A stretch of DNA of 64,000 nt from Bacteroidales bacterium UBA6117 (GCA_002428385.1 DIWB01000003.1:366-64365), one strand, 5' to 3'. Shown: positions 12,713-55,016, counted from the first letter of the stretch. Program-made: numbers and translations. Notes: generated from the letters alone by a model not told the origin.

Positions 12713-14023
12713 ATGAAAGCAACAAATTACATATTCGGCCTTGCCCTTCTGACTCTCGCCTCCTGCTCTTCGGGGCTGTATGTGGGAACAGAATACGATG
12801 ACCTGTATTTTGTGAGTTCCGATCAGCCTGTAACAAAGGCAAGAACAAGCGAGCGCAATCAGATTTCCGAAGACAATCTGAGATCAGGATCATATTACGA
12901 CAACATCTATGCTGCCGACACCCTGGTATCGGAGGAATATTCCGATGCAGTCGACTATGCTGATGCGGGCAGTTATGACAACAGATACGATTATTATGAC
13001 GGCTCCTACTCCGGAAGGCTGAACAGGTTTTACGGGAACTACTTCAACCCTTACTGGAGGGATCCATTCTACTCCAGCTTCTACCCGTCGTTCGGGTTCA
13101 ATAGCTTCTACTCCGGATTTCCGTACTCATACTACGATCCGTTCTACTACGATTACTACAGCCCTTATTCCTACGGAGGTTTTTACAGCCCCTACTCATA
13201 CGGCGGGTACTATGGAATGGGAATGGGCATGGGAATGGGAATGGGATATTACAGCCCATACTACAGCTCCTTCTATTCACCCTGGTACTACGGAGGCTAT
13301 TACAGCCCCTACACATTCAACGACCGTGATGTGAATTACGGAAGAAGGGAAAAACCAAGCAACATGTCTACCCGCTGGTCAGGCGGCAGCTCCACAGGAG
13401 CGTCCGGAACTTCCGGAACAGCATCATCCAGGAGAACCACCGACCCGGCTTCCGGCACCGGAGTACCGGCCACCGGAACTGTTGGAACATCAACTTTGAG
13501 AAGGACTACCACCCCGGTCAGCGGTACTCAGCAGCCTGTAGCAGGTGAAAGAAGAACCACTACCCAGGGGGCCGGCAACACCGGAACTCAGTCAACCCAG
13601 ACTAGAAGACCGGCTGCCACACGCCCTGAATACAATTCAGTCAACAGGTCATACACTCCTACTTACACAAATCCAAGGGTTAGCACCAGGCCTTCATACA
13701 ACAACACCAGGGTAAACAGCGGGACTACCACCACCAGGCCTTCCAGCTCTTCGACCCAGGGAAGAAGTAGTTCATCATATTCCGCTCCCTCCAGGTCAGG
13801 CTCGTCTTACAGCAACCCCGGCACCTATTCTGTTCCGTCAAGAAGAAGCTCAGGATCAGGATCATCCTACCCCGGCGGCAGTTCTTCCTACAGCGGAGGC
13901 AGCTCCGTGTCGAGGAGCAGCGGCTCATCATACTCAGGAGGTTCTTCCTACTCGGGTTCTTCATCCTCTGGCAGCTCTTCATCATCATCATCCGGCCGCT
14001 CTTCATCAGGAGGAAGAAGGTAA
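12713..14023 (+). CDS. Tyr/Ser/Gly/Thr-rich low-complexity lipoprotein
   Basis: Signal peptide with lipobox LTLASC, then YYSPY/SYGGFY/(GM)5 motifs, RRTT-P-SGT repeats and an SSYSGG tail ending GGRR. Long open frame with a proper signal sequence. No homology call possible by eye. Confidence 0.75.
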   Translation: MKATNYIFGLALLTLASCSSGLYVGTEYDDLYFVSSDQPVTKARTSERNQISEDNLRSGSYYDNIYAADTLVSEEYSDAVDYADAGSYDNRYDYYDGSYSGRLNRFYGNYFNPYWRDPFYSSFYPSFGFNSFYSGFPYSYYDPFYYDYYSPYSYGGFYSPYSYGGYYGMGMGMGMGMGYYSPYYSSFYSPWYYGGYYSPYTFNDRDVNYGRREKPSNMSTRWSGGSSTGASGTSGTASSRRTTDPASGTGVPATGTVGTSTLRRTTTPVSGTQQPVAGERRTTTQGAGNTGTQSTQTRRPAATRPEYNSVNRSYTPTYTNPRVSTRPSYNNTRVNSGTTTTRPSSSSTQGRSSSSYSAPSRSGSSYSNPGTYSVPSRRSSGSGSSYPGGSSSYSGGSSVSRSSGSSYSGGSSYSGSSSSGSSSSSSSGRSSSGGRR

Positions 14024-14100: not shown

Positions 14101-15582
14101 ATGAAAAGGTCAGCCTTAATAATTGTAGCAGCATTGCTTACATTCACCGGACTCAAAGCCCAGAATGTAGATGATGCCCTAAGATACTCCCAGATCTTCT
14201 ATACCGGTACAGCCAGGTTCATGTCGATGGGGGGGGCCTTCACAGCCCTCGGAGGCGATATGTCAACATTTAGCCAGAACCCTGCCGGAATCGGTGTGTT
14301 CAGATCTTCAGAAATATCACTGACACCGCAGCTTCTGCACGCAAAAACGTCAGCTAATTTCAACGGGATCTCCGATGATTATCTGTACAATTTTAACCTT
14401 GGCCAGGCAGGCGTTGTCGGAAACCTGATAAAGGGAAGCGGAACCACCGGATTGATCTCACTCAATGTCGGATACTCATTCAACAAGACGAACAACCTGA
14501 ACAATACGGCACGTATTCAGGGAAACAGCGCAAACAGCTCAATGGCCGATTACTGGGCTGATGAGGCTTACGGTATTTACTATGGCGATATCGGAGGCGC
14601 AGCAGGAATTGCTTACGATGCATGGATCATCGATACTTTAAGAGATGCGAATGCCAGTTACTATGGTACGGTTTTTTCGAATTACGGCGACAATCCAACA
14701 TCCGATTACGGTCAGAACATCAGGCGACTGATCACCAACCAGGGATATACGGGTGAACATGCAATATCAATCGGTGGAAACTATTCAAACAAAGTGTATT
14801 TCGGAGCAACCCTGGGTATCAACACTATGAGGTATACCGGACATTATGAGCATCTTGAGAAAGCCGACTATTTCCTCGATTCACAGTTCAGCGATTTCTC
14901 TTATGTTGAGCATTTTGAAAATACAGGAACAGGGGTTAACCTCAAGATTGGAGCTATAATCAGACCGGTAGAGGAACTCAGGATAGGAGTTGCTTTCCAT
15001 TCACCCACATTATATAAGATTAATGAGAGGTTCTATGATAACATCTCTTCCAACTTCACCGATGGTGGCCATTATGAATTCTATAACGACGAGCTGGTTT
15101 ATGAATATGCACTGACAACTCCTTTCAGGGTTCTTGCCGGTGTTGCTTACCAGATTGAAAAAACTGGTCTGCTTAGCGTTGATTATGAATTTGTTGATTA
15201 CAGCATGGTTAAGTTCTCGGAAACAGGCGATGACTATGATTACAGCGAGAAGAACCTTGATATAAAGAATACACTGCAACCTGCACATAACATCCGCGTT
15301 GGCGGCGAACTGAGGTTTAACAAACTGTACTTCAGGGGAGGATACGGCTATTACGGAAAAGTATTCAGGGAGGATGAGGTTAACAAGGATTTGTTCAACA
15401 GGTCAATTTCGGCAGGACTCGGCTTCAGGGAGCAGAACCTGAGTATCGACTTCGGCTTTACCAACATGAGGAACGAACAGAAATACATACTTTACGACTC
15501 TTACTACGAAACTGCAATGGCCAACCTGACTAACACCAGGAATATGTTTTCGGTTACCCTTGGCTATAAATTTGGCTTCTGA
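14101..15582 (+). CDS. FadL/TodX/PorV-like outer-membrane beta-barrel protein
   Basis: Signal peptide MKRSALIIVAALLTFTGLKAQ, a FadL-type N-terminal segment GTARFMSMGGAFTALGGDMSTFSQNPAG, alternating beta-strand pattern, and a C-terminal aromatic ...LGYKFGF. Confidence 0.7.
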   Translation: MKRSALIIVAALLTFTGLKAQNVDDALRYSQIFYTGTARFMSMGGAFTALGGDMSTFSQNPAGIGVFRSSEISLTPQLLHAKTSANFNGISDDYLYNFNLGQAGVVGNLIKGSGTTGLISLNVGYSFNKTNNLNNTARIQGNSANSSMADYWADEAYGIYYGDIGGAAGIAYDAWIIDTLRDANASYYGTVFSNYGDNPTSDYGQNIRRLITNQGYTGEHAISIGGNYSNKVYFGATLGINTMRYTGHYEHLEKADYFLDSQFSDFSYVEHFENTGTGVNLKIGAIIRPVEELRIGVAFHSPTLYKINERFYDNISSNFTDGGHYEFYNDELVYEYALTTPFRVLAGVAYQIEKTGLLSVDYEFVDYSMVKFSETGDDYDYSEKNLDIKNTLQPAHNIRVGGELRFNKLYFRGGYGYYGKVFREDEVNKDLFNRSISAGLGFREQNLSIDFGFTNMRNEQKYILYDSYYETAMANLTNTRNMFSVTLGYKFGF

Positions 15583-15602
15583 TTTACTTTACTGATTAAT
15601 AA

Positions 15603-15632
15603 AAAAACGGTGCCTGGCCAGGCACCGTTTTT
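15603..15632. terminator. Bidirectional rho-independent terminator
   Basis: Perfect 30-nt palindrome AAAAACGGTGCCTGG|CCAGGCACCGTTTTT, with an A-tract on one side and a T-tract on the other. It lies between the convergent FadL-like gene (+) and the WbqC gene (-). Confidence 0.8.
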
Positions 15633-15637
15633 ATTTG

Positions 15638-16240
15638 CTATAAAAACAAGGCTGCATCCGGACCAAGGTTGAAGATCAGATCGAGGATACTTAAACCCGG
15701 CACAAAACCGGCTTCTCCGAAAACCTGGATGTAAGGCTTTGAACTGAATACCTGTTCTCTTTTTGGTGAAATGCAGTACCTGTAATCCCCTGGCTTAAGG
15801 GTGGCCGGTTCAAACGATGAAGTGTAGTTTATACACTTATTAATATTCAAAAGGGTGAGGCACTCCTGAAGCAGTTCCTGGTTAAGGTCGATAAGAAAAC
15901 GATGTTTTTTTTGCAGAATGCTGAAGATGTTTTCGGAATAATAAAGGAAGTAAGGCGATCTTCCGTATGCTGATGTGAAGGCTCCTGTATGAACCTGTTG
16001 CCATCGTTTCGAATAATCAATCTGAATATCTTTTACCGGCGCTTTTAACCTGTCGCCTTTCGTGACCGGCACGGAGAGGATCAGTACACCATTTGATGCA
16101 AGTATCATGCATCTGTTCCTGTAGGTTTGTTTGAGGTAGTTTTCTTCCCGTTCTAAAAATACGATTGCTGCATCCCGGATAAGCCTGAAATAGCAGGCCG
16201 GAGGAAAGTATGCCGTGGAAAGAAGCAGTTTGTCGGCCAT
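15638..16240 (-). CDS. WbqC-family protein
   Basis: N-terminus LLLSTAYFPPACYFRLI...LEREENYLKQTYRNRCMILASNGVLILSVPV matches my memory of the WbqC-like family. It starts 9 nt after the larB stop. Confidence 0.7.
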   Translation of the reverse strand: MADKLLLSTAYFPPACYFRLIRDAAIVFLEREENYLKQTYRNRCMILASNGVLILSVPVTKGDRLKAPVKDIQIDYSKRWQQVHTGAFTSAYGRSPYFLYYSENIFSILQKKHRFLIDLNQELLQECLTLLNINKCINYTSSFEPATLKPGDYRYCISPKREQVFSSKPYIQVFGEAGFVPGLSILDLIFNLGPDAALFL

Positions 16241-16249
16241 CAGGGCAGA

Positions 16250-16999
16250 TCACTTCATATGGTTAATCATGCTTGCAGAGAAGCCGGCGCCGAAACCATT
16301 GTCGATATTGACAACAGTCACCCCTGAGGAACAGCTTGTAAGCATTGCCAGCAGCGCCGATATGCCTCCGAAACTTGCTCCGTATCCAACGCTTGTGGGA
16401 ACAGCGATAACGGGTGAGCTGACCAGTCCTCCGACAACACTTGCAAGGGCTCCCTCCATGCCGGCAATTACAATTACCACACGGCATTTCCTTATTTCGG
16501 GGAGTTTATCCACAAGGCGGTGTATGCCGGCAACGCCTGCATCATATATCCTGAGAACGTTGTTCCCGAGAAGTTCTGCAGTGACGGCAGCCTCTTCAGC
16601 AACCGGTATGTCGGAGGTGCCTGCAGTGATAACCGCAATAGCAGTTTCGGGCCGTTTCATTTCGCGGAAAGGGATGCTTATGATTCGTGCCTCCGGATAC
16701 CAGACGGCTTCGGGGAAAATTTCCTTCACCGCGTCGTACATTTCCCGGCCGGCCCTGGTTCCGATGACATTGTTCTTTTTCCCCGCCATCAGCCTGAAGA
16801 TTCCAATGACCTGGTCGGTAGTCTTCCCTGCGCAGTATACTATTTCAGGATACCCTGTCCTGATCTCCCGGTGATTATCAATTTTTGCATACCCGAGATC
16901 GGTAAACGGAAAGTCGTGCAGAATGTCGAGTGCTTCCTCTACGCTTTTACTTCCGTCTTTTATCTCCCTGAGGAGTGTTTCAATGTCGTCCCTGTTCAT
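16250..16999 (-). CDS. larB: Nickel-pincer cofactor biosynthesis protein LarB (NaAD carboxylase/hydrolase, PurE-like)
   Basis: 249 aa with DNHREIRTGYPEIVYCAGKT and a PurE-like ITAGTSDIPVAEEA...VIAGMEGALASVVGGL core. 4-nt overlap with larE. Confidence 0.9.
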   Translation of the reverse strand: MNRDDIETLLREIKDGSKSVEEALDILHDFPFTDLGYAKIDNHREIRTGYPEIVYCAGKTTDQVIGIFRLMAGKKNNVIGTRAGREMYDAVKEIFPEAVWYPEARIISIPFREMKRPETAIAVITAGTSDIPVAEEAAVTAELLGNNVLRIYDAGVAGIHRLVDKLPEIRKCRVVIVIAGMEGALASVVGGLVSSPVIAVPTSVGYGASFGGISALLAMLTSCSSGVTVVNIDNGFGAGFSASMINHMK

Positions 17000-17799
17000 G
17001 GTCTGGTGTTTTCAGGATCATAGGAGCCTGATCTGTATCCTTCGAGATCCAAAGATACATATCTGAATCCGATTTTCTTAAGTCCTGAGATAATAAGTTC
17101 TCTGTCAGGACTCTGAGTCATCTTGCTGAAATTGGCGGGGTGGCATTCTATCCGGGCCAGGTCGCCATGTATCCGGACCCTGGTTCCCGGATATCCGCTG
17201 GTTCGAAAGAAATCTTCCGCCTGTTCAACCATAAGGATCATTTCGGAAGTTACTGCAGTGTTATAAGGGATCCTGGTGAGCAGGCACGCCATAGAAGGTT
17301 TAGAGGCGATATTAAGTCCTTCTGCGGCCAGTAAATCCCTGATGTCCTGTTTTGTGAGGCCAGCTTCCATCAGGGGGCTTCTGACGCCCAGCTCCTTAAG
17401 CGCCCTGATTCCAGGTCGGTGAGAGTTGGCATCATCAGCGTTGGAGCCGTCGACGACGTGACTGAAACCGTTGTCAGCAGCAAAGCCAAGCAGTTGTCCG
17501 AACAGTATCTTTTTGCAGATGTAGCACCTGTCGGGTGGATTATTCCGGATTGGTTCAGGGAAGGAAAGATCCAATATACGGTGGCTGATTTTATGTGCCC
17601 TCGCAAATTCAGTAGCTTCTTCAATTTCCGAATCAGGCATATAGGGGGTACTGAGGGTGACTCCAGTTATTTTTTCTTTCAGGAGTGAATGTGCGCGAAG
17701 AAGGAGATATGAACTATCCACACCTCCTGAAAAACCTACGACAAAGGAATTCAGATCAATAAGCAAACGGTCAAGTTTATCCCTTTTGTTTTCGGTCAT
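16996..17799 (-). CDS. larE: LarE sulfur-insertion ATP pyrophosphatase
   Basis: PP-loop GFSGGVDSSYLL, 267 aa, with cysteines in DRCYICKK and SMACLLTRIPY. 4-nt overlaps with both larC and larB. Confidence 0.9.
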   Translation of the reverse strand: MTENKRDKLDRLLIDLNSFVVGFSGGVDSSYLLLRAHSLLKEKITGVTLSTPYMPDSEIEEATEFARAHKISHRILDLSFPEPIRNNPPDRCYICKKILFGQLLGFAADNGFSHVVDGSNADDANSHRPGIRALKELGVRSPLMEAGLTKQDIRDLLAAEGLNIASKPSMACLLTRIPYNTAVTSEMILMVEQAEDFFRTSGYPGTRVRIHGDLARIECHPANFSKMTQSPDRELIISGLKKIGFRYVSLDLEGYRSGSYDPENTRP

Positions 17800-18980
17800 G
17801 ATTGCTTTTTGTTGTTTACAATAACCGAGATGATATTGTTATAAACCTCCTTGACGGGGATGTTTCTTTCCGATGCAATCTTCCTGCATTCTTCGTATTC
17901 TGGTTTGACGGAGACCTGTTTCCCGCCGAAGAACGACCTTTTCACCGTTACCTCGCCGTAGATTGTGTCAACCTTAAAGGTTTCCCTTGCAAGTGTGTCC
18001 TTATTAAATTCAAATGATCTCATTCCGAGCGTGGTGGACTCTGTGAAGATTATCTCTTTCAGCTTGTTTTCCGAACCCTTTTCGCATATAACATTAAGAA
18101 TTACGCCGGGTCGTCCCTTTTTCATTATGATCTGAGTGAAAAATACATCAGCAGCGCCGGCCCTGAAAAGATTATCGGAAATATGGTCGTAAAACTCCGG
18201 ATTCATGTCGTCAATATTTGCTTCCAGCAAGACGGCCCTGTGTCCCCGCGCATTATCTCCGGCTGCTTCGCCCATAAAGACCCTGAGGAGGTTGGGTACC
18301 ACGGGATGTTCCTTATGTCCAATTCCGTAGCCTGTTTTTGTTATGGTAAGCTCTGGTCCGGTGCCGAATTTTGTCCCGAGGGCAGTGACAATTGCAGCTC
18401 CTGTAGGTGTTGTAGCCTCAAAATCAACGCCTCCGACCCTGACAGGAATTCCTTTTATTATTTCGGCTGTAGCCGGCGCCGGCACCGGCAGCCTGCCATG
18501 ATCGCAATTAACGAAGCCGCTCCCGAGTTCAACCTCCGAAACGTATACCGCTTCAACCCCAAGTGCAACGAAGCATATTGCGGCACCGGTAACGTCAATT
18601 ATTGAATCGACTGCTCCTACCTCGTGGAAATGAACCACTTCGAGTGGTATTCCGTGAACGGCAGCCTCAGCCTGTGCAATTTTCATGAATATCTTCATGC
18701 TCAATTCTTTAACCTTATCAGGCAAAGCTGATCCCGTGATTATCTTTTCAATATCCGATAAGTGCCTGTGTACATGTTCGTGCCTGGTTTGCCTTACGGT
18801 TATTCTAGTTCCTGTGATCCCGTGGCGCTGGCTCTTTTCTGAGATAAGTTCCCATCCCTCCAGTCGGAGCTTTTCAAGTTCGGATCTGAGAAATCCGGTA
18901 TCAATGCCAAGGTCGACCATGGCGCCGAGGTTCATGTCGCCGCTAATACCCGAAAAACAATCATAGTACAGTACTTTCAT
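17796..18980 (-). CDS. larC: LarC nickel insertase (DUF111 family)
   Basis: N-terminus MKVLYYDCFSGISGDMNLGAMVDLG is the DUF111/LarC signature. Single 394-aa ORF, no frameshift needed. Confidence 0.9.
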   Translation of the reverse strand: MKVLYYDCFSGISGDMNLGAMVDLGIDTGFLRSELEKLRLEGWELISEKSQRHGITGTRITVRQTRHEHVHRHLSDIEKIITGSALPDKVKELSMKIFMKIAQAEAAVHGIPLEVVHFHEVGAVDSIIDVTGAAICFVALGVEAVYVSEVELGSGFVNCDHGRLPVPAPATAEIIKGIPVRVGGVDFEATTPTGAAIVTALGTKFGTGPELTITKTGYGIGHKEHPVVPNLLRVFMGEAAGDNARGHRAVLLEANIDDMNPEFYDHISDNLFRAGAADVFFTQIIMKKGRPGVILNVICEKGSENKLKEIIFTESTTLGMRSFEFNKDTLARETFKVDTIYGEVTVKRSFFGGKQVSVKPEYEECRKIASERNIPVKEVYNNIISVIVNNKKQS

Positions 18981-19083
18981 ATACAGCCGTTAATTAAGTG
19001 TAACAAACAAAACCCGGGAATGTTGAGATCTCATGAACCGGATAATAAACAGTAATTCTGCGTAAATATACAATTTACAATCA

Positions 19084-19116
19084 TTGGAGAATTGATAAAA
19101 ATAATTCGTATTTTTG
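19084..19116 (+). promoter_or_regulatory. Candidate Bacteroidota sigma-A promoter for the DUF362 gene
   Basis: Perfect -7 box TATTTTTG (19109..19116), 41 nt before the ATG. The upstream TTG (19084..19086) sits at a slightly long 22-nt spacing. Confidence 0.3.
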
Positions 19117-19156
19117 TTGACTTTTCGGTTACGTATTAAAACCTGAGTTATCCATT

Positions 19157-20077
19157 ATGAGAAGGAGGGAGTTTTTCAGAAAGTCTGTCGGGGCCGGTAT
19201 TGCTGCCGGTGCTGCTTTCAGCATTGGAGGATACAATAAATTATGGGCAGCAGGGACTTCTCCGGAAAAATATGATATGGTTGCAATAATGGGTGGTGAA
19301 CCCGATGCAATGTTCGATCTGGGTATTCAGGAACTTGGCGGTATGGGAACATTCATCCGGAAAGGACAGAAGGTTCTTGTCAAACCAAATATAGGCTGGG
19401 ACGTTGTTCCGGAACTGGCAGCCAATACAAATCCCAATCTTGTAAAAAGGATTATTGAACACTGTTTCAGGGCAGGAGCAAAGGAAGTATATGTTTTCGA
19501 TCATACCTGCGACAACTGGGTCAACACTTACAAGAATTCGGGGATCGAAAAAGCTGCAAAAGCTGCAGGCGCCAAGGTAGTTCCCGGCAATACCGAGAAC
19601 TATTACCAGGAGATCGAGATACCCACAGCTGTGAAGCTTAAGAAAGCCAAGGTTCACGAACTCATTATGGAGACAGATGTATTTATAAATGTTCCCATAC
19701 TGAAAGACCATAACTCAACCAGAATGACAGCCTGTCTTAAAAACATGATGGGAGTAGTCTGGGACAGGGGGTACTGGCATTCGAATGATCTTCACCAGTG
19801 TATAGCCGATTATGCTCTGTTTGAAAAGAAACCCGTCCTCAATATCATTGATTGCTACAACGTGATGGTAAAGCATGGGCCGCAGGGTGTTTCAAAAGAG
19901 GATGTTGTCCAGATGAAATCACAGATCATAACCTCCGACTGGGTTGCAGGTGATGCCGCGGCCGCGAAAATGCTCAGCATTGATCCCCGGCGGGTTGATT
20001 ATATTCCCATTGCTCATAAGATGGGCCTTGGCAACATGAACCTTGAATCGCTCAATATCAAGCGTATAAAAATGTAA
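19157..20077 (+). CDS. Tat-signal DUF362 domain protein
   Basis: Twin-arginine leader MRRREFFRKSVGAGIAAGAAFS. The body (VLVKPNIGW..., PILKDHNSTRMTACLKNMMG, IIDCYNVMVKHGPQG) matches my memory of DUF362. Confidence 0.8.
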   Translation: MRRREFFRKSVGAGIAAGAAFSIGGYNKLWAAGTSPEKYDMVAIMGGEPDAMFDLGIQELGGMGTFIRKGQKVLVKPNIGWDVVPELAANTNPNLVKRIIEHCFRAGAKEVYVFDHTCDNWVNTYKNSGIEKAAKAAGAKVVPGNTENYYQEIEIPTAVKLKKAKVHELIMETDVFINVPILKDHNSTRMTACLKNMMGVVWDRGYWHSNDLHQCIADYALFEKKPVLNIIDCYNVMVKHGPQGVSKEDVVQMKSQIITSDWVAGDAAAAKMLSIDPRRVDYIPIAHKMGLGNMNLESLNIKRIKM

Positions 20078-20083
20078 TTTGTA

Positions 20084-21646
20084 ATGACATCTTCCTTCCT
20101 CAGGAAATTAAGGATTTTGTTTTCTTCCATTGTCCTGATTTGTTTTTTTTTCGTTTTTGCTGACTTCATGTCAGTAATACCGGAGAAATACATTAATTCT
20201 CTTTTATACCTTCAGTTTGTTCCTTCGGCGCTTAAGTATATCAACCTGACGACAATGGCAGCAGGAGGGTTCATCATTGTTCTCCTGCTCACACTTCTTA
20301 CCGGCAGGACATATTGTTCATTTCTTTGTCCGCTGGGGATCGGACAGGATCTCTTCAGCCGTATCGGAGGCAGGATTAAAAGGAAATTCAGGAGATTCGG
20401 ATATAAAAAGCCGCATACAATAATAAGATACTCCCTGCTTGTCCTGACTCTTGGGACCGCTATTTTCTATGGACTTTACCTGGTTACTCTTCTTGATCCC
20501 TACAGCATATTCGGTAGGTTTATGACTTATCTGGGCGAGCCTGTGATTTTGCTTATCAATAATTTTCTGACCTGGCTGCTCGGAAAATTCGATGTATACA
20601 CTCTCCATCATGTTGATATCAGGGGATTCAACCCGATGACATATGCTGTTCCTGTCGCATTCTTTCTGCTTGTCGGGACAATGTCCTTTGTGAAAGGAAG
20701 GCTTTATTGCAATATGATCTGCCCGGTAGGCACTCTTCTGGGCCTGATTTCGAAGGTCTCGATATTCAGGGTCAAATTCAGCGAAAGCAAATGCACCCGT
20801 TGCGGACGTTGTTCCGTACGATGCAAAGCATCATGCATCGATTTCCTTAATTATAACATAGATGTCAGCCGCTGTGTAAATTGCTTCAACTGTATTGATG
20901 TTTGTCCTGAAAAGGCGCTTTCCTATAGTTTTATCGCCTCAAAGGAAAAGCCCGCCAATACTGACGAAGGCAGGCGGAAATTTGTTGCAGGATCGCTTCT
21001 GATGCTTTTAGGGATTACCACCAGTGCCAGAAACCAGGATCAGGAAGGAGCGCCTGTCCCGCGTAAAGAGTCGACTGTAAAAGAGCCAAGAAATTTTCCG
21101 GTATGCCCTCCCGGAGCAGGATCGATGGAGGAATTCACAAAATATTGTACGGCATGTTCCCTCTGCATCAATGCTTGTCCGAACAATGTCCTTCAACCTG
21201 CCGTGATGCAGTATGGCATTGCCGGATTCATGCAGCCGGTTATGGATTATCACAGGAGCTTCTGTACTTTTAACTGCACCGTCTGTACTGAAATATGTCC
21301 CACAAATGCCCTCAAACCTCTGCTCCTTGAAGCTAAAAAACTTACTCAGTTAGGTAAGGTTTTCTTTATAAAGGACAATTGCATAGTCAAGACCGAAAAG
21401 ACAGCCTGTGGAGCCTGCTCCGAAGCCTGTCCCACAAAAGCAGTGTATATGGTGCCTTACGAGGGTAATCTGGTGATACCGGAGACCAATCAGGACATCT
21501 GTATCGGATGCGGACATTGCGAATATGCTTGCCCGGTTACACCTTACAAAGCCATATTCGTCGATGGAAATCCTGTTCACATGGCTGCCGCCAAACCCGA
21601 AATCAAAGAAGCCGAAATCACAACCCCGGAGGAGTTTCCTTTCTGA
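20084..21646 (+). CDS. Membrane-anchored polyferredoxin (NapH/MauN-like N-domain plus multiple 4Fe-4S motifs)
   Basis: TM helices carrying CSFLCPLG and CNMICPVG. Then CTRCGRCSVRC, CVNCFNCIDVCP, CTACSLCINACP, CTVCTEICP, CGACSEACP and CIGCGHCEYACP. Starts 6 nt after the DUF362 gene. Confidence 0.8.
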   Translation: MTSSFLRKLRILFSSIVLICFFFVFADFMSVIPEKYINSLLYLQFVPSALKYINLTTMAAGGFIIVLLLTLLTGRTYCSFLCPLGIGQDLFSRIGGRIKRKFRRFGYKKPHTIIRYSLLVLTLGTAIFYGLYLVTLLDPYSIFGRFMTYLGEPVILLINNFLTWLLGKFDVYTLHHVDIRGFNPMTYAVPVAFFLLVGTMSFVKGRLYCNMICPVGTLLGLISKVSIFRVKFSESKCTRCGRCSVRCKASCIDFLNYNIDVSRCVNCFNCIDVCPEKALSYSFIASKEKPANTDEGRRKFVAGSLLMLLGITTSARNQDQEGAPVPRKESTVKEPRNFPVCPPGAGSMEEFTKYCTACSLCINACPNNVLQPAVMQYGIAGFMQPVMDYHRSFCTFNCTVCTEICPTNALKPLLLEAKKLTQLGKVFFIKDNCIVKTEKTACGACSEACPTKAVYMVPYEGNLVIPETNQDICIGCGHCEYACPVTPYKAIFVDGNPVHMAAAKPEIKEAEITTPEEFPF

Positions 21647-21686
21647 TACAGGGGAATAACTAAATTCTTGTCAAACATGATTTTTG

Positions 21687-21719
21687 TTTGCCTGAGCTAT
21701 TTTTAAGCTGTTAATTTTG
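21687..21719 (+). promoter_or_regulatory. Candidate Bacteroidota promoter for the mce-mmd-cit operon
   Basis: TTTG (21687..21690), 21 nt, then TAATTTTG (21712..21719), 33 nt before the mce ATG. Both boxes match the TTTG / TAnnTTTG consensus. Confidence 0.5.
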
Positions 21720-21752
21720 CTTAAATTATAGTCATCAAAAACATGCTCTTTT

Positions 21753-22178
21753 ATGAAACCTGCACATATAGAACATATTGGTATTGCAGTAGCCAGTCTG
21801 GCAGAATCGGTGGCGTTTTACGAGAAGGTTCTCGGCCTGAAATGCTATAATATTGAGGAGGTTCCGGATCAGAAAGTCAGAACTGCTTTCTTTATGGTCG
21901 GACAGACAAAGATTGAACTGCTTGAGTCGACTGACCCTCAGGGTACAATTGCCCGCTTTATTGAGAAGAGGGGGGAGGGCATCCACCACATTGCATTTGC
22001 CGTGGAAAACATTGAGGAAAAGCTAAGGCATGCGGAAAAGGAGGGAGTCAGACTGATCGACACCAAGCCAAGGAAAGGCGCAGAAGGCCTTGAAATTGCA
22101 TTCCTTCACCCGGGGTCGGCACACGGGGTACTTATCGAGCTTTGCGAACATCCCGGTCACGAACAGCCGGAAAAGTAA
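21753..22178 (+). CDS. mce: Methylmalonyl-CoA epimerase (VOC/glyoxalase fold)
   Basis: 141 aa. [23 protein letters not shown] ... KIELLE ... GEGIHHIAF ... GVLIEL is typical of the epimerase. It precedes the carboxyltransferase. Confidence 0.85.
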
Positions 22179-22225
22179 TACAGGATATTCTACTTCATAA
22201 ACAGTACACAAAACACACATTATAT

Positions 22226-23785
22226 ATGGATAGCCAGGATAAGGTTAAGCAGCTCATCGAACTGAGAGAAAAAGCGCGTCTCGGTGGAGGGCTGCAAAAG
22301 ATTGAGGATCAGCATTCCAAGGGAAGACTGACAGCCAGGGAAAGGATAAATATTCTACTCGATGAAGGAAGCTTTGAAGAGTTTGACATGTTTGTCACTC
22401 ATCGTACCGAGGATTTCGGTATGGGTAAGAAGAAATTCCTTACCGACGGGGTGATAACAGGTCATGGGACCATCGACGGGAGGGTGGTGTATGTGTTTGC
22501 CCAGGACTTTACCATTTTCGGCGGGTCGTTGTCTGAAGCCTTCTCGCAGAAAATTTGCAAAGTGATGGATCAGGCGATGAAGGTGGGAGCGCCGGTAATC
22601 GGAATAAACGACAGCGGCGGAGCGCGTATCCAGGAAGGGGTGAAAAGTCTTGCAGGCTATGCTGAGATTTTTGAAAGAAATATTCTTGCTTCCGGGGTTA
22701 TCCCCCAGATTTCTGCGGTATTTGGACCATGTGCGGGAGGAGCGGTTTATTCCCCGGCCCTCACCGACTTCATAATCATGAGCGAGAAAAACAGTTATAT
22801 GTTCGTAACCGGCCCCAAAGTTACCAGGACGGTTACCGGAGAGGAAATATCAACTGAAAACCTTGGAGGTTCAGGCGTTCACGGAACAAAATCGGGTGTA
22901 GCTCATTTTATTGTGGACGAAGAGGAACAGGGGCTTTTGCTTATCCGTAAACTGCTGAGCTATCTCCCGCAGAATAATATGGAGGAACCTCCTCTTACCG
23001 AATGCGACGATCCGATCGACCGCAAGGAAGATGATCTTAACAGCCTGATACCGGAAAACCCAAATCAGCCCTATGATGTTAAGGACATTATTTTCAAAAT
23101 CGTTGATTACAGCGAGTTCCTTGAGATTCACGCGGGATATGCAAGGAATATAGTTGTCGGTTTTGCCAAGATGGCAGGAATGCCGGTGGGTATTGTGGCC
23201 AATCAGCCAAACTTCCTGGCAGGCGTCCTTGATATCGATGCATCGAGAAAGGCAGCAAGGTTTGTGAGATTCTGCGATGCTTTCAATGTCCCCATCGTAA
23301 CACTTGTTGATGTGCCGGGCTTTCTGCCTGGAAGCGGGCAGGAATATGGCGGCATAATTATCCATGGCGCCAAGCTTATGTTCGCCTACGGTGAAGCCAC
23401 TGTCCCAAAAGTCACTGTTACATTGAGGAAATCATACGGCGGGGCACATTGCGTCATGTCGTCCAAACAACTCCGGGGTGATGTAAATTACGCCTGGCCT
23501 TCGGCTGAGATTGCGGTAATGGGGCCATCTGGTGCAATTGAAATTCTCGAGGGAAAAGCTCTTGCTGAAATAAGCGATCAGGAAGAAAAAGCGGCTTTCA
23601 TTGCCGAAAAGGAGAATGAATACCGTACAAAGTTCGCCAATCCTTATGAGGCGGCAAAATACGGCTTTATTGATGACGTGATCGAGCCCCGGAACACCCG
23701 CTTCAGGATAATTAGGGCTCTGAGAACCCTTGCTACCAAAAAGGATCCGGGACCTATGAAGAAACATGCAAACATACCATTGTAA
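22226..23785 (+). CDS. mmdA: Methylmalonyl-CoA decarboxylase alpha subunit (acyl-CoA carboxyltransferase)
   Basis: The carboxyltransferase N-terminus starts at [22 protein letters not shown]...[20 protein letters not shown]. The track start 22142 would overlap mce; ATG 22226 gives about 519 aa. Confidence 0.9.
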
Positions 23786-23798
23786 ACAGAGTCCGGCC

Positions 23799-24161
23799 AT
23801 GAGTTATCTTTCAATAAATCTTTTAAGCCTCTACCTTGATGATGCAGCTGCTGTGCGACTGCTGATAGTGCTTAACATTATCCTGTTATCAATCATATTG
23901 CTGTGGTTTATAATCAGGGTACTGGTTCCCCTGATAAGGAAACTTCTTGCAGGGCGTAAGGAAAAGGCGGCTGTTGCTGAAACCATTATCACTGGAGCCC
24001 CGGAGACCGGCTCAGATGCAGAAGCCGCTATTGCCACAGCTCTTTACTTGTATTTCAATGAGATACACGACGAAGAGAGCGACATCATCACTGTTAAGAG
24101 GGTGTCGAAGACTTATTCGCCATGGAGCTCAAAACTATACAGTATGAGAAATTTGCGTTGA
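23799..24161 (+). CDS. mmdD: OadG-like small membrane subunit (decarboxylase delta/gamma chain)
   Basis: One TM helix (LLIVLNIILLSIILLWFIIRVLV), an Ala-rich linker and a C-terminal VKRVSKTYSPWSSKLYSMRNL tail, as in Bacteroidota OadG-like subunits. Sits between mmdA and the BCCP gene. The internal ATG 23799 is preferred over 23766. Confidence 0.65.
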   Translation: MSYLSINLLSLYLDDAAAVRLLIVLNIILLSIILLWFIIRVLVPLIRKLLAGRKEKAAVAETIITGAPETGSDAEAAIATALYLYFNEIHDEESDIITVKRVSKTYSPWSSKLYSMRNLR

Positions 24162-24208
24162 TTTTATTCAGACAGGGAATCTTAAATTGATCATGTAAGA
24201 AAAAAAAT

Positions 24209-24628
24209 ATGAAGAGCTTCAAGTTTTTAGTAAAAGGGAAAAAATACGATGTGAGTATTCTGTCCCTTACCGGAAATGTGGCAAAGCTGAAGGTGAATGA
24301 TGAGGATTACGTTGTTGAGATAGAAAGGAACGTTAAACCCGATAAAACCCCGATTGTTGTCAGGTCTGCAATCAAGGAGCCCCAAAAGGATATAGAGAAG
24401 AAAACGGGAGGCCCGAAAACGGAAGTTAAATCTCCTCTTCCCGGGATCGTTGTAAGGATATTTGTAAAACCGGGAGATACTGTTGCAAAGAACCAGCCCC
24501 TCTTCACCCTTGAGGCAATGAAGATGGAAAATGAGATCAAAGCGGAGCGCGACGGCATGATCTCAGGTGTGAAAGTTATAGCAGGACAGACAGTTCTGCA
24601 GGATGAGGTTATAATGGAAATGGATTGA
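24209..24628 (+). CDS. mmdC: Biotin carboxyl carrier subunit
   Basis: Biotinylation motif LEAMKMENEI within a C-terminal biotinyl/lipoyl fold, 139 aa. Confidence 0.9.
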   Translation: MKSFKFLVKGKKYDVSILSLTGNVAKLKVNDEDYVVEIERNVKPDKTPIVVRSAIKEPQKDIEKKTGGPKTEVKSPLPGIVVRIFVKPGDTVAKNQPLFTLEAMKMENEIKAERDGMISGVKVIAGQTVLQDEVIMEMD

Positions 24629-24660
24629 TCTGCTTTTAACACATCTTTAGTCACGGTATT

Positions 24661-25890
24661 ATGGATAACAACTGTGCGACATCAGGAAATTCAGGTCCCA
24701 AAATCAGGTCCGACTGCCAGATTACTCTCTTTCTGAAGAGCGAGGGAGGTATCTCTACTGATCTGAAATCGAAGGTGGAAACCCTTTATGGGGAATCCAT
24801 CAGGACGCTGTGCTCGGAAATGCTCGGCTATTTCGGGATTGAGAACGCTCATCTTGCAATAGATGATTCCGGAGGACTGCCTTTTGTTATTATGGCTCGG
24901 GTGGAAGCCGTTGTAAAGAAACTGACCGCATCGGAGATGAGTTTTCTTCCTGATTTCCCTGAGGCCAACAAGTATTCAACCCTGCGCGACAGATTTCGCT
25001 TTTCAAGACTATATCTGCCGGGGAACACTCCAAGCCTTATGATAAATGCGGGGCTTCACTCAGCCGACGGGATCATCCTCGACCTGGAAGACTCGGTAGC
25101 GCCCGACAGGAAGGACGAGGCAAGGATTCTTGTGAGGAATGCTCTCCGCCAGCTCGATTTCAGGGGTGCGGAAAGGATGGTGAGGATAAATCAGGGCGAC
25201 AGGGGAATGGACGATCTTGATTCCGTGATACCCCACAATGTGAATCTCATCCTGATACCAAAATGCGAGACTGCTGAAAACGTGAAGGAAGTCGCAATGC
25301 GTATCAGGGATATAAAGGCAGGATCCGGATCAGACAATCCCGTTTATCTGATGCCAATAATTGAGAGTGCCATGGGAGTGGAAATGGCATTCGATATTGC
25401 CAGAGCTGATGAAAGTGTTGTTGCACTGGCAGTAGGGCTGGAGGATCTTACCGCCGATATGGGCGTGAGAAGGACAAATGAGGGGAATGAGACACTCTAT
25501 GCCAGGACAAGGATCGTAAATGCTGCCAGGGCCGCCCGGATACAGCCGATTGATTCGGTTTTCCCCGATGTTGGTGATATGGAAGGTCTCCGCCGTAATG
25601 TTGCGGTCTCAAAATCACTCGGATTTGAGGGCATGGGTTGCATTCACCCCAGGCAGGTTGCAGTAATAAGACAGGGTTTTGCTCCGGAACAGGAAGAAAT
25701 TGAAAAAGCGAGGAAAATTGTACTGTCTTATGAAGACGCTCTGTCGAAAGGTCTGGGGGTGGTTGCCCTGGGTTCAAAAATGATTGATCCCCCGGTTGTT
25801 GCCCGGGCCATGAAGGCTATCGATCTGGCTGTAAGGCTCGGTCTCCTTGATTCTGGATGGAGAGATGAATCCTCGGCTGTTGTGAATTAA
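24661..25890 (+). CDS. citE: Citrate lyase acyl-carrier (CitD-like) fused to citrate (citryl-CoA) lyase beta subunit (CitE)
   Basis: The first ~95 aa align by eye with CitD (IRSDCQITL..., SKVETLYGESIRT, IDDSGGLPFVIMARVEAVVKKL). The rest is HpcH/CitE-like (RLYLPGNTPSLM, GIILDLEDSVAPDRK, IPKCET, GFEGMGCIHPRQV). Confidence 0.8.
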   Translation: MDNNCATSGNSGPKIRSDCQITLFLKSEGGISTDLKSKVETLYGESIRTLCSEMLGYFGIENAHLAIDDSGGLPFVIMARVEAVVKKLTASEMSFLPDFPEANKYSTLRDRFRFSRLYLPGNTPSLMINAGLHSADGIILDLEDSVAPDRKDEARILVRNALRQLDFRGAERMVRINQGDRGMDDLDSVIPHNVNLILIPKCETAENVKEVAMRIRDIKAGSGSDNPVYLMPIIESAMGVEMAFDIARADESVVALAVGLEDLTADMGVRRTNEGNETLYARTRIVNAARAARIQPIDSVFPDVGDMEGLRRNVAVSKSLGFEGMGCIHPRQVAVIRQGFAPEQEEIEKARKIVLSYEDALSKGLGVVALGSKMIDPPVVARAMKAIDLAVRLGLLDSGWRDESSAVVN

Positions 25891-25902
25891 TCAACTTAAA
25901 TA

Positions 25903-27468
25903 TTGCTTATCATGTCGATTCCGACTGTAATAAATGCCGTGGGAAGGGCTGTACCGGCAGAAATTAACGGCAAACCTGCAATCCCTTTCAGGGGAGTCGG
26001 AAAATACAGGCCTTCGGGAAATAAGTATGGTCCTCCCATTCCTTCATGCATCGATTTTCCTGACGATGGCAACAAGGTTGTTTCAACTCTGGAGGAGGCT
26101 CTCCTGAGATGCGGCATCCGCGATGGGATGACAATATCCACTCATCATCACCTCAGGGATGGAGACCTGGTCAGCAACAGGATCTTCGATATAGCATCAA
26201 AGATGGGAGTGAAGGACCTTGTCTGGTTCCCTTCTGCTTCTTTCCCATGTAATGACCCTGTTATCAAGTACCTCGAGGATGGAACTATAAACCGGATCGA
26301 AGGAAGCATGAATGGTCCGCTCGGAAGGTTCGTTTCGGAAGGAAGGATGAAGGGTACCGCGGTACTGAGGTCGCACGGGGGACGTGTTCAGGCAATCCAG
26401 GACGGTGAGGTGAAAATCGATATAGCGGTTCTTGCTGCACCAACAGCCGATTCTTTTGGAAACGCAAGGGGAACCGGAGGAAGTTCTGCTTGCGGGGTAC
26501 TCGGCTATGCCAAGGCCGATTCGATGTATGCCGGCAAGGTGATTGTTGTTACAGATAATCTCGTCGATATCCCGTGCTTCCCGATGGAAATTGAGGGCAA
26601 CTATGTCGACTATGTGGTGGTTGTCGACAAGATCGGGATACCGGAAAAGATTGTGTCAGGAACCACCCGGATTACAAAAAGTCCCGACAGGCTGCTTATT
26701 GCGGAGCTTACCGCGGCATTTCTTGAGAAGACTGGCATCTTGAAGGATGGTGTCAGAATGCAGGCCGGCGCAGGGGGTACATCTCTTGCTATCGGGGTGT
26801 TTATTCATGAGATACTCAGGAAAAAGGGCTGGAAATCGAAATTCGGATTCGGAGGCAGTACAAGGTATATGGTTGAAATGCTTGAGAGCGGGCAGATGGA
26901 ATACATCCTCGACGCACAGGTTTTTGACCTCGAATCGGTTGACTCTATTGCCAGAAATCCGAACCATGTACCGTATTCCGTTTTCAACGCATACAATCAT
27001 CACTCAAAGGGTAACCTCACCAGCATGATGGATATTATGATACTCGGGGCAACCGAGGTCGATCTGAATTTCAACGGGAATGTGGTGACACACTCCGACG
27101 GTTACCTGCTTCATGGCATAGGAGGATGGCAGAATTGCCTTCATGCCCGGAACGTAATACTTCCGGTGCCATTGTTCCGCGACAGGATACCTGTAATAGT
27201 TGACGAGGTTACAACCCTTTGCGGCCCGGGAGAACTAATCGATGCAGTTATCACAGAGAGGGGTATTGCAATAAATCCCCTGAGGCAGGATCTTATTGAT
27301 AGTGTGAAGAACAGCGGCCTGCCGGTCACTACAATTGAAGAGCTGAAGATGGAAGCAGAAAGGATCTGCGGGAAGCCTTCAAAGCCTCAGTTCGATGACA
27401 AAATTGTTGCTGCAATAAAATGGGTCGACGGCACAATTATTGATACAGTCAGAAAAATCAAAAAGTAA
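25903..27468 (+). CDS. citF: Citrate lyase alpha subunit (citrate CoA-transferase)
   Basis: 521 aa. [28 protein letters not shown] and overall length match CitF. The start may be ATG 25912. Confidence 0.9.
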
Positions 27469-47590: not shown

Positions 47591-50500
47591 TCATTCTTCC
47601 GCCGTCACTTCTTCTTCTTTCCTGAATTCTGAGGGAGGCTTTTTCTTAAAGATGTCCGTCAGCTTGTTGAAATCCTGCCTTAAAGAAAATCCCAGCCCCT
47701 GGGTATAAGGCGCTCCCTTGCCGGTATATGGATTGTTATATCTGTTAAAGACCTTGAATCTCAGTTTCTCTGTTAACCTGTATTCAATATCGAAATCTCC
47801 GATCAGAGGTGTTTCTTCAGTCTCGGTTCCGGTAACATCGAAATTTCCGTTTATTGTGACCTTGTCATTGAGCAGCTGAGTCGAAAGCGCCACCTGGAGC
47901 TGTTGTGAGCTTAAGTCCTTGGTCCCGGGTGTATAAAGGAATCCTACATCAAAATCGTTGCTGATCTGCGACAGCCAGTTGCTCAGTTGGTTTGAAAGCA
48001 TCTCGGTTGTTGTGACTGCCATTGCCGATGTTCCCGTTCCGGTAAATCCCGATGATGCACGGTAGGAGGGATCGGCATAAAAACTGTTCATCACAAGAAG
48101 ATAGATGAACTGTTTGCTCTTTTCCTCCTCGGTGGTAATGGCATTCCTAAGGTAAGTTCTCGTCTCCTCATCAGCATTCGGAAGATAGATGTTGAACCCG
48201 ACAACAGGGTTGAACAGGTTCCCGGAGAGATTCAGCTGTGGTTCAACAGGTATCCTGGCTTCATATTTGGGATCCTGAAGAATCGGGAACAGGATAGGGG
48301 AGAGTGATGTCTTTATATTCCTGTATTTTGCAGTGAGGTCGATCTCAGCGCTTTCTATATTTCCGTTGAAACTTATTTTCCCTCCCTTTTCAACTTCAAA
48401 CTTCTTGTTGAGGATATTCTTGAGTGTGAATAGATAATCGCCTTCCTCTATAGTGTAATCCCCGAAGATTTTGAATTCTCCTTTCCTGTTAAGACTGATA
48501 TTGAGCCTGCCGGAACCTTTTCCCCTGATCACGTCACCTGCTTTGGGATCAATAAGGAGCTGCACCTCAGCATCGGGAGTGACATCGAGGTCAAAATTAA
48601 GCTCGAGTGTTGATCCTGCAGAAGTTGTGGCGGCGGCCTTAAGGTCCTTTCCCTTCGCCATCATTGCGGAGTCGTGATTAATAAAGGTGACGAAGGAAGA
48701 TTCAGAAACTGACATGCCGGAATTCAGAGGTATGAAGAAGCTTGTCCCGCTGCCTGTTCTGGCAGAAATATCGAATGAAAGTGAGTTAGGGCCGCTCTTT
48801 ATTGTGGTTACGCCCGAAACGTATGCGGTTCCATAGAAAAGCTCGTTGTCGCCCTGACTGGTATTGAGAACAAGGCAGTCGTTCTTGTCCATATTGATAG
48901 TCAGATCAACAGCGAAATCCTTGAATGATTTGTGGTAGACGGCCCCGGTGAGTATGGCGCTGTTACCTTCTTCATCTGTTATCCCGGTATTCCTGAACCT
49001 GATTCCGCGCCTGTCGAACCGAATTGAATCGTTTATAGAATACCGTGTCTGGAGATAATCGATCTTGAGTGACGTGTTTTCTGGCATGAGAGAACCTGTG
49101 AGGACAAGCTCGCCCGGCGCCCCGGTGACTTTTACCCTGCCCGATACTGTACCCTTTATGTCGGACGCAAAAAAGCTTAAAAGCGGATTGAGCGCATGAA
49201 CCGGCAGATTTGAAGCGACTCCGTCAATCAGGAATTGCTTGATCCCCGGATCGTAAAAGCCAGACAGATCAAAGTTTCTGAGGCCGTTCAGATTGTTTCT
49301 CGCACTCAGATCAGCTACTTTTTTCTGCGAATTCCACCGGGAAATAACCGATACATCTCCATAATTGCCGCTGAGTATTGAAAATCCGGCGATACTGAGG
49401 TCACTCTGGATGAGAGGATCCTTCAAAGCGCTTGAGATCACAATATTCCCGTTAACAATCCCCCTGATGTCAAGAAGGAGCGGCTCCTTGCCTGCATTTT
49501 CAGCCTGTTTGGCCGGACTGTTCAGGGGGCTCAGGTCTATCCCGTTAAACAACAATTTCAGGGTGTCATTCTGATTCCCTGAAACAGAGCCGTCGGCAAT
49601 ATAGGAATGGGCTCCGCTTGAGACTACGAAACGGTTGATTGTTGTTGATGCTGAATCAATGATTATCGATGATTTTCTTACTGTCCATGTTTTTTTCGAT
49701 GTGGTGACATCCGTTGAGTCAATGTCGATCCGGAGAAATGATCCGGTTCTGCCGTCATCCCTGGGGATGAACGATCCTCTCGAAATAAAGGATCCCTTGC
49801 TTATTTTACCGATCCTGTCATTCCAGTCAAGATCGAAATTGAATTCGTCAGAACCCGCGTTGAAACCTGCCCGGAATTCCTTCAGATCGGCTCTTCCCAG
49901 AACCAGCAGCGAAGTACTCCTCATGTCGGCCATGAATGCCGATTCCGAATAGAGCGCTTTCAGTGAAAAATTGCTGAAGGTGTTGTTCCTGAAAACGAGC
50001 TTCCCTGCATCTGCAGACATGGTTATCAGACTGTCCCTGTAAAATGATCCGCTCATGGTGCTCTTTTCCGAAAGGAGAAGACCTGTTTTGAAGAAATTGT
50101 TCAGTTTGTCAGTGTTCCTGAATCTGACGTTATATGTAAATTCATTTGCTGAAAGTCCGCCTGAAAGCTCAGGAGCACTGAATTTTGACGGCAGGAGGGT
50201 GGCAAGGGCTGATTTCAGGACCAGACCTATTTCACCAAACTTATAATAGCCCCTCAGGTCGGCATCAACAAAATCGGTCTTTACGGAAAGGGCAGGCTTG
50301 CCGCCTTCATTAAATGCCTTCAGGGTAAAGTCGTACAAATCGAGTTTGTTGCCGTATTTCTTTATTGTGGAATTAAGCAGTCTGATTTCGCCGAAAAGGT
50401 TGTCAATGTTATTTCCCCTGAAATTTGCAGTTGCCAGCATGGAAAGTCCAGCTGTGGTGTCGCGTTTGTCAAAATTCAGCCTGTAAAGGTTCGATTCGGC

Positions 50501-54887: not shown

Positions 54888-55016
54888 TCGATTTTGATTA
54901 ATACTGTTATGTCGTATGGTTCCGCAAGGCTTCTTGTACAAAAATGGAATCATTAACATATAACGATTTTGAATGACGTTTTGTGACAAAATATGGTCAA
55001 AAATCGTGCCGCCGGG

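Follow-up and report, generated by a model that had tools for sequence, protein, structure and literature searches.

The DNA examined here is a stretch of 64,000 nucleotides (nt) from Bacteroidales bacterium UBA6117 (GCA_002428385.1, DIWB01000003.1:366-64365), referred to below as the window, and the question that it raises is which protein uses nickel-pincer nucleotide (NPN), a cofactor that its lar operon is predicted to supply. Three genes of this operon, all on the minus strand, encode LarB (nicotinic acid adenine dinucleotide carboxylase/hydrolase; 16250-16999; NF033503, E=1e-88, 296 bits), LarE (sulfur insertase; 16996-17799; TIGR00268, E=3e-84, 282 bits) and LarC (17796-18980; PF01969, E=6e-147), the last with LarC1 and LarC2 fused in one frame (218 and 142 bits against the respective NCBIfam models); the scores of all three genes are far above the NCBIfam cut-offs. 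LarC inserts nickel during the synthesis of the cofactor. As the initial annotation of this locus had stated, the operon is without LarA; a tblastn search found no LarA homologue in the entire window. Divergent from larC, across an intergenic gap of 176 bp (18981-19156), lie a gene for a 306-residue protein of the DUF362 family (19157-20077, plus strand; PF04015, E=2e-46) and, starting 6 nt past its stop codon, a gene for a 520-residue polyferredoxin (20084-21646, plus strand). The initial annotation had put forward the DUF362 protein as a second candidate client of the lar operon, and its coordinates, the back-to-back spacing, the 6-nt gap and the twin-arginine leader that it had read in the DUF362 protein have all proved correct.

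It has been reported that about 15% of genomes have larBCE without larA (PMC11796402), and two other families of NPN users have been described so far, both cytoplasmic and both hydride-shuttling (PMC13524815). The lar-neighbourhood screen of the same study, from 2026, set aside LarA homologues, and DUF362 is not mentioned in it (PMC13524815). In the searchable literature, no function has been assigned to DUF362 (PF04015), and no exported NPN enzyme has been reported. The reading that we put forward, to which we give an even chance of being correct, is that the DUF362 protein and the polyferredoxin make up a periplasmic nickel-pincer oxidoreductase wired to the membrane, with NPN as its putative cofactor.

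Whether the DUF362 protein resembles LarA could not be established in the initial annotation; the answer is yes, on the evidence of Foldseek matches, membership of the same Pfam clan, the matching of LarA proteins to the DUF362 hidden Markov model (HMM) and a shared His-x9-Lys...His motif. The AlphaFold model of the protein, built on 68 diverse relatives, has a predicted local distance difference test (pLDDT) score of 94.4, and its top 18 Foldseek matches in the PDB are all LarA or LarA homologues (9eia, 2yjg, 5huq, 9q3j, 7s91, 6d6z), with E-values from 1.5e-6 to 1.6e-4, a probability of 1.0 and 200-305 aligned columns. A clear gap follows this group, the next match having an E-value of 7.7e-4 and a TM-score of 0.19. 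Sequence searches of the PDB, with the single protein or with the 68-sequence profile, gave no meaningful match. DUF362 and LarA both belong to clan CL0471, which bears the name "DUF362-like superfamily" (PMC7955657), and for this reason DUF362 was used as the outgroup in the LarA tree of the Desguin group (PMC11770544). Furthermore, genuine lactate racemases match the DUF362 HMM at 22-26 bits over LarA residues 82-245, a span that contains all of the cofactor-site residues, and the LarA protein P0276 reaches 26.1 bits against a cut-off of 24. The window protein itself scores 158.9 bits against the same cut-off, its residues 73-271 covering profile positions 1-200 of 200. As modelled, the protein has a compact form of the LarA fold, and DUF362 is a shorter sister of LarA.

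The shared motif is a putative cofactor site, D174-x2-I-x7-H185-x9-K195-N-x11-H208 (19676-19780, plus strand), the counterpart of D163...H174-x9-K184...H200 in LarA, for which the numbering of LarA_Lp was recovered from PDB alignments. Three hhalign runs placed H185 on the catalytic His174 of LarA and K195 on Lys184, the residue to which NPN is tethered, so that by sequence register K195 would be the positional counterpart of the NPN-tethering lysine of LarA_Lp. Among the 68 diverse relatives, 65 have H185 and 64 each have K195 and H208, and K76, N78, D115, D174, N178, K183, N196, R204, D232 and D266 are also kept in the same alignment; the strand end K76-P77-N78 is conserved in 66, 66 and 64 of them. 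The composite motif D-x2-h-x7-9-H-x9-K-[NS]-x10-15-H was found in 100 of 121 representatives with a twin-arginine translocation (Tat) signal and a DUF362 domain (Tat-DUF362), in 69 of 78 metagenomic DUF362 proteins and in 99 of 120 LarA proteins, and in none of 425 unrelated control open reading frames (ORFs). It is kept in remote cytoplasmic DUF362 proteins as well. When anchored on His-x9-Lys, the window protein reads (E/N)-A/T-D-x2-I ... KDH-NSTRMTACL-K-NMMG...WH, a Streptomyces DUF362 protein RTH-SSVVFTNAM-K-NLVGLLPG...VH, a Subdoligranulum one KTH-VMTGMSCAV-K-NLFGTVPG...FH, and LarA ESH-FFAGFSGGR-K-SVLPG...NH.

The N-terminus of the DUF362 protein, MRRREFFRKSVGAGIAAGAAFSIGGYNKLWAAG, begins with MRRREFFRK, a twin-arginine motif; the h-region behind it is mildly hydrophobic and closes with an AxA-like sequence (WAA/G), and by direct reading of the sequence residues 1-33 (19157-19255, plus strand; R3R4-E-F-F-R-K) form a Tat signal peptide. 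The pLDDT of the model is low across residues 11-30, which fall within this signal region. A strict RR motif is present in 115 of the 150 best family representatives, an RR motif was found in 71 of 76 metagenomic relatives, and the Pfam TAT_signal model matches 23 of 68 relatives. In addition, two other, unrelated lineages (four loci, L083-L086; L083 787-1782 and L086 7926-9061) have tatA/tatC immediately upstream of the pair of DUF362 and polyferredoxin genes, and the Tat machinery and the DUF362 module appear to share one operon there. We thus consider the DUF362 protein a predicted Tat substrate. No conserved Cys was found in it across the 68 diverse relatives, and the loading of a cofactor in the cytoplasm would explain the use of the Tat pathway by a protein without Fe-S ligands.

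The family to which this protein belongs is large, with 4,843 clusters (clustered at 50% identity) at E<=1e-3 and 1,844 at E<=1e-10. The sole NCBIfam match of the window's DUF362 protein is the cyanobacterial Npun_F2552 family (NF052623, E=2e-17, below the cut-off). It has been reported that most cyanobacteria make NPN yet are without LarA (PMC11796402), and, judging by this match, the DUF362-like Npun_F2552 family could be the missing NPN user of these organisms; we found no functional study of the family in the literature.

The polyferredoxin contains two Fer4_5 matches and several Fer4 families according to Pfam. Its N-terminal part resembles NapH/MauN (E=7e-27) and its C-terminal part NapG (E=6e-16), NapF (E=2e-18) and MauM/NapG (E=2e-12) among the NCBIfam models, the NapG, NapF and MauM matches spanning residues 291-493; none of these reaches the equivalog cut-off (94.6 vs 213 for TIGR02163, 85.9 vs 234 for NF007013 and 58.3 vs 269 for NF007012). 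According to the hydropathy and motif scans, a NapH-like membrane domain with transmembrane segments (TM) 1-4 (20084-20728, plus strand) carries the motif C78xxxCP close behind TM2 and C209xxxCP close behind TM4. It is followed by two cytoplasmic [4Fe-4S] motifs of the form CxxCxxCxxxC(P), Cys237-247 and Cys264-274 (20792-20908, plus strand; Fer4_10, Fer4_16). Next come an internal twin-arginine motif, R297R298-K-F, and a weakly hydrophobic TM5 (20972-21028, plus strand), together a predicted Tat-dependent insertion signal, and then a NapG-like domain (21104-21535, plus strand), predicted to be periplasmic, with four [4Fe-4S] motifs at residues 355-365, 394-405, 433-449 and 473-483. The Kyte-Doolittle value of TM5 (residues 299-315) is 1.44, vs 1.97-2.69 for TM1-4, and positive charges (R316, R327, K328, K332 and R335) lie past it. 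The loop 84-112 contains nine Lys/Arg residues, and by the positive-inside rule this loop, the two CxxxCP motifs and two of the clusters are predicted to be in the cytoplasm, and four clusters to be outside. The initial annotation had recognised the CxxxCP motifs and about six ferredoxin-type Cys motifs and had missed the internal RR-TM5 element, which is present in 36 of 44 partner proteins of diverse lineages. No close structure of the polyferredoxin was found in the PDB.

Tooke et al. 2017 (PMC5449189) showed by experiment that, in a polyferredoxin in which NapH and NapG are fused, TM1-4 depend on the Sec pathway and TM5 and the external domain on the Tat pathway. Since an internal RR motif precedes TM5, the window protein reads as such a NapH-NapG fusion with four outside clusters and a dual Sec/Tat architecture, which makes the NapH-type electron conduit of the initial annotation more precise. 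According to its published description, PFD Q1NSB0 of delta proteobacterium MLMS-1 (PMC5449189) shares with the window protein the NapH-NapG fusion, five TM segments, RR before a weak TM5 with positive charges after it and four outside [4Fe-4S] motifs; on the other hand, three cytoplasmic clusters were counted in it and no catalytic partner was named, whereas here the DUF362 protein is the partner. NapGH, along with MauMN and NosGH, likewise has two CxxxCP motifs, two cytoplasmic clusters and a four-cluster periplasmic NapG-type part, and by analogy a quinol link to a Tat-exported periplasmic enzyme would be expected in our case. In contrast to NapGH, both parts are here in one polypeptide, nap, mau and nos genes are absent nearby, and the client would be a LarA-fold protein rather than a molybdo-, haem- or copper enzyme. 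NapH-like modules are known to serve, as modular units, many extracytoplasmic reductases and oxidases, to which they deliver electrons or from which they take them up (PMC8238504). The PceC and NosR-type systems described in the same work also employ a PF12801 membrane Fe-S module in the service of extracytoplasmic reductases and oxidases; they have a flavinylated FMN-binding domain on the outside, where the window protein has a NapG-like domain with four clusters, and neither an FMN-binding nor an ApbE gene was found near the DUF362-polyferredoxin pair.

The pairing of the two genes was followed in two sets of loci, a close set of 80 genomes of one Bacteroidales clade (75-96% identity) and a diverse set of 80 metagenomic loci (~35% identity to the window protein), 44 of which have enough sequence; the metagenome scan was run with a 12-sequence alignment, a 57-sequence alignment being too diverse. 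The polyferredoxin gene is immediately downstream of the DUF362 gene in 75 of 75 close loci and directly next to it in 37 of 44 diverse loci (41 of 44 when near neighbours are counted), and no other conserved gene family was found near the pair in the diverse loci. On this gene order, DUF362 and polyferredoxin are a widespread self-contained pair, the products of which would presumably interact. The DUF362 gene is also the most conserved gene of the clade locus after the carboxyltransferase, with a median identity of 80% vs 68% for LarC and 60% for LarE. An aldo-keto reductase gene (L170 189-1247) lies ~1 kb upstream of a Tat-DUF362 gene on one metagenomic contig; some members of that superfamily use NPN, and the neighbourhood may be a coincidence.

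As regards the link between the pair and the lar genes, larC is divergent and adjacent in 74 of 74 clade loci. Since all neighbours of the locus are syntenic in the clade too, this adjacency counts as one evolutionary event and not as independent evidence. An alignment of 26 related intergenic regions revealed two conserved blocks in the divergent gap. One, a Bacteroidetes-type TAnnTTTG-like box (GTATTTTTG), precedes the DUF362 gene, and the other, AA.ATAC.A.TT, is turned towards larC; both are promoter-like, and no operator shared by lar and DUF362 was seen in this alignment. The divergent control region on which the initial annotation had leaned in proposing DUF362 as a lar client thus carries little weight, and it is an independent linkage in Streptomyces that lends the proposal support. 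The plasmid collection in which it was found contains only four records with true DUF362 proteins, two of them uninformative genome fragments. In Streptomyces sp. NBC_01450 (NZ_CP109481.1, a 2.35-Mb replicon), a gene for a cytoplasmic DUF362 protein comes after a cyclase-family gene and is divergent from an operon in which genes for DAHP synthase and a chorismate-binding enzyme are joined with larE, larB and larC. A distance of ~4 kb separates the lar genes, which lie inside a non-ribosomal peptide synthetase (NRPS) cluster, from the DUF362 gene, and no LarA was found in 46 kb of sequence or on the 2.35-Mb replicon. This cluster (L173 1077-9092 / L175 17000-39500) also contains two giant C-A-T(-TE) genes, and its DUF362 protein has a Cys-rich C-terminal extension. 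Its gene content suggests a nickel-pincer-dependent step in secondary metabolism. The 2.63-Mb replicon of Acetoanaerobium noterae similarly encodes larB-larC and a ferredoxin-fused DUF362 protein, with no match to LarA on the replicon. These cases are few; they are independent of the Bacteroidales clade and involve very distant members of DUF362 that keep the motif. A weak LarA-like match beside larC in Embleya sp. NBC_00888 was set aside, as it is an ordinary divergent LarA homologue and not a DUF362 protein; this LarA (L177 7782-9134) lies between larE-larB and larC, with ~21-26% identity to known LarAs and far from the characterised groups.

If the favoured reading is correct, the adjacent LarB, LarE and LarC would make the NPN with which the DUF362 protein would be loaded in the cytoplasm, probably with Lys195 as the tether of the cofactor, His208 as the nickel ligand and His185 in the acid/base role. 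Once loaded, the protein would be exported folded via Tat, and the C-terminal ferredoxin domain of the partner would likewise reach the outside through Tat. The LarA-like subunit would, in the periplasm, oxidise or reduce a small substrate, e.g. a hydroxy acid/keto acid or a sugar, by NPN hydride transfer, and the six-cluster chain would link this chemistry, with electrons possibly flowing in either direction, to the pool of menaquinone and/or to a donor in the cytoplasm, much as nitrate reductase is served by NapGH. DUF362 proteins are fused to or paired with ferredoxin modules, so that an exchange of electrons is implied, which would be new for NPN. LarA (PF09861 + PF21113; 5HUQ, 2YJG, 9EIA, 9Q3J) has in common with the DUF362 protein the alpha/beta fold, the clan and the motif of His174, Lys184 and a downstream His, and the DUF362 gene adjoins larB, larE and larC; however, every LarA enzyme known so far works in the cytoplasm and on its own, as a redox-neutral racemase or epimerase, whereas the DUF362 protein has a Tat signal and is paired with an Fe-S chain. 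The NphT aldo-keto reductase (PMC13524815) and the NPAD-dependent ornithine cyclodeaminase resemble our case in being encoded beside larBCE in the absence of LarA, and in having a conserved Lys and His as candidate tether and nickel ligand; they differ in their unrelated folds, their cytoplasmic location and the lack of an Fe-S partner. None of the aldo-keto reductase, ornithine cyclodeaminase and Lar_N families was found among the 29 Pfam-scanned ORFs of the window, out of 34 ORFs of at least 250 residues; the stretches unscanned or without an assignment are 12713-14023, 14101-15582, 47591-52072, 57410-58411, 58430-59764, 59790-60653 and 61434-63539.

A number of observations weigh against NPN as the cofactor, and several of them favour a different explanation, in which the architecture is the same and the active site holds another metal or organic cofactor, or none, while the adjacency to lar is inherited synteny and the operon serves another client, either the WbqC-like protein or the product of a distant gene. 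To our knowledge, NPN is known only as a hydride carrier, and an exchange of electrons with Fe-S clusters is not known from any NPN enzyme, whereas DUF362 proteins are habitually fused to or paired with Fe-S modules. Outside the clade, the DUF362-polyferredoxin pair almost always lacks lar genes nearby, having them within 10 kb in 1 of ~32 long-flank loci; at the Parabacteroides distasonis pair, as at several other loci, none was seen. In the single exception (L168), larC-larB are 8 kb from a distant Tat-DUF362 pair with unrelated genes between, as compared with a chance expectation of about 0.04-0.18 such cases in 708 kb of flanks. Within the clade the entire neighbourhood is syntenic, including the porin-like gene and the methylmalonyl-CoA epimerase gene. 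A competing candidate associate is at hand in the fourth gene of the lar operon, the WbqC-like gene (15638-16240, minus strand; PF08889, E=2e-35), which starts 10 nt after larB and follows larB in 71 of 80 related loci. The WbqC-like family is found elsewhere in polysaccharide loci, and the AlphaFold model of the window member is poor (pLDDT 55, shallow alignment). The resemblance to LarA also has its limits: the Foldseek TM-scores, at 0.39-0.53 normalised to the query, are moderate; neither Lar_N (PF09861) nor LarA_C (PF21113) matches the window protein at E<=10, and Lar_N matches 1 of 68 relatives at an E-value of 0.08; the Tat-DUF362 HMM gave only spurious low scores against 120 LarA proteins; the local hhalign comparison of DUF362 with LarA, used for register only, reached an E-value of about 0.05 with low probability, and the global one gave meaningless output and was discarded. 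The mature DUF362 protein has ~270 residues vs 424 in LarA, the full protein being ~120 shorter. At the site itself, the hhalign register is unstable beyond K195, so that the pairing of H208 with the nickel ligand His200 is one of spacing, H208 lying 13 residues after the Lys vs 16 in LarA and 15 in cytoplasmic DUF362 proteins. LarA His108 is without a conserved His counterpart (position 116 is R/H/N), Asp115 being conserved in that region instead (57 D and 8 E of 68); the ribose-binding Asp72 of LarA corresponds to Asn78, and no Arg stands in register with the phosphate-binding Arg75. On the other hand, the exact His-x9-Lys register and the wider LarA motif, which are absent from the controls, speak against an active site devoted to another cofactor, as do the Streptomyces cluster and the Acetoanaerobium replicon, in which lar genes and DUF362 occur together without LarA; Tat targeting of a protein without conserved Cys also argues for a cofactor loaded in the cytoplasm. 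We regard this explanation as a serious one that falls somewhat short of an even chance.

If NPN is indeed bound, the protein might still be a redox-neutral periplasmic racemase or epimerase, with the polyferredoxin carrying no electron flux for catalysis and only keeping the oxidation-sensitive cofactor reduced, reactivating it or serving a separate process. All characterised LarA-fold enzymes are racemases or epimerases, LarA holoenzymes are labile and one acid/base His (H185) is retained, all of which would agree with such an enzyme; however, two-way racemisation needs two catalytic His residues and a single one is present, a six-cluster transmembrane chain kept in 37 of 44 diverse loci would be a heavy cost for repair alone, and the fused ferredoxin domains of cytoplasmic DUF362 proteins suggest that electron exchange is intrinsic to the family, so that we hold this to be improbable. 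Some homologues of LarA are known to have one catalytic His only (PMC12611868). It is more improbable still, and in our view hardly to be expected, that the DUF362 protein is a non-enzymatic, Tat-exported escort or assembly partner that docks to or caps the periplasmic ferredoxin domain. The invariable co-encoding of the pair and the adjacent tatAC of some lineages would suit an escort, whereas its near-invariant polar residues at strand ends and in the LarA active-site register (the K76...D266 set), its rank in conservation within the clade locus and the existence of cytoplasmic DUF362 members without a membrane partner all point away from one.

Several other features of the window were recorded. 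The window LarE has Cys92-x2-Cys95 and Cys172, residues that agree with the type dependent on [4Fe-4S] and not with the sacrificial type, which has a single Cys; larE is absent between larB and larC in at least 12 of 80 related loci (L021, L023, L026, L031, L032, L033, L047, L056-L058, L065 and L068). A bidirectional terminator with a perfect 13-bp stem and T-runs on both sides (15603-15632) ends the lar operon and separates it from a convergent gene for a 493-residue outer-membrane-porin-like protein (14101-15582), which comes next after a gene for a 436-residue protein with a lipoprotein-like N-terminus and extreme Ser/Gly/Tyr/Thr-rich low complexity (12713-14023, plus strand); both genes are syntenic in relatives. 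An Rfam scan of 15000-23000 found no riboswitch or other family, two weak STnc50 matches being the terminator hairpin and not an RNA family. Directly 3' of the polyferredoxin gene, with no terminator detected between it and the epimerase gene, the plus-strand stretch 21753-27468 encodes methylmalonyl-CoA epimerase, a methylmalonyl-CoA decarboxylase-type complex (carboxyltransferase, small membrane and biotin-carrier subunits) and citrate-lyase beta- and alpha-like proteins, a gene content that indicates a propionate-fermentation context. The flanking genes are housekeeping genes, and a full-length bacterial serpin is encoded at 53634-54989 (minus strand; PF00079, E=1e-114).

As to the wider meaning, DUF362 is a testable candidate for NPN use in genomes without LarA; it is the sister family of LarA, and anaerobes very commonly have it. 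We consider it possible, while leaning slightly towards doubt, that the Tat-DUF362 protein and its NapGH-type fusion partner are a widespread periplasmic NPN enzyme wired by Fe-S clusters to the respiratory chain, and that the whole DUF362 family, its ferredoxin-fused cytoplasmic forms and the member in the Streptomyces NRPS cluster included, explains part of the NPN makers that are without LarA. If this is true, the window would encode the first exported and the first electron-transfer-coupled NPN enzyme, in which a nickel-carbon cofactor would be coupled to one-electron Fe-S carriers in the periplasm, and the orphan class of dual Sec/Tat polyferredoxins would gain a catalytic partner. It would also give a name to a conserved respiratory-type module of the Bacteroidales, including the gut species Parabacteroides distasonis.

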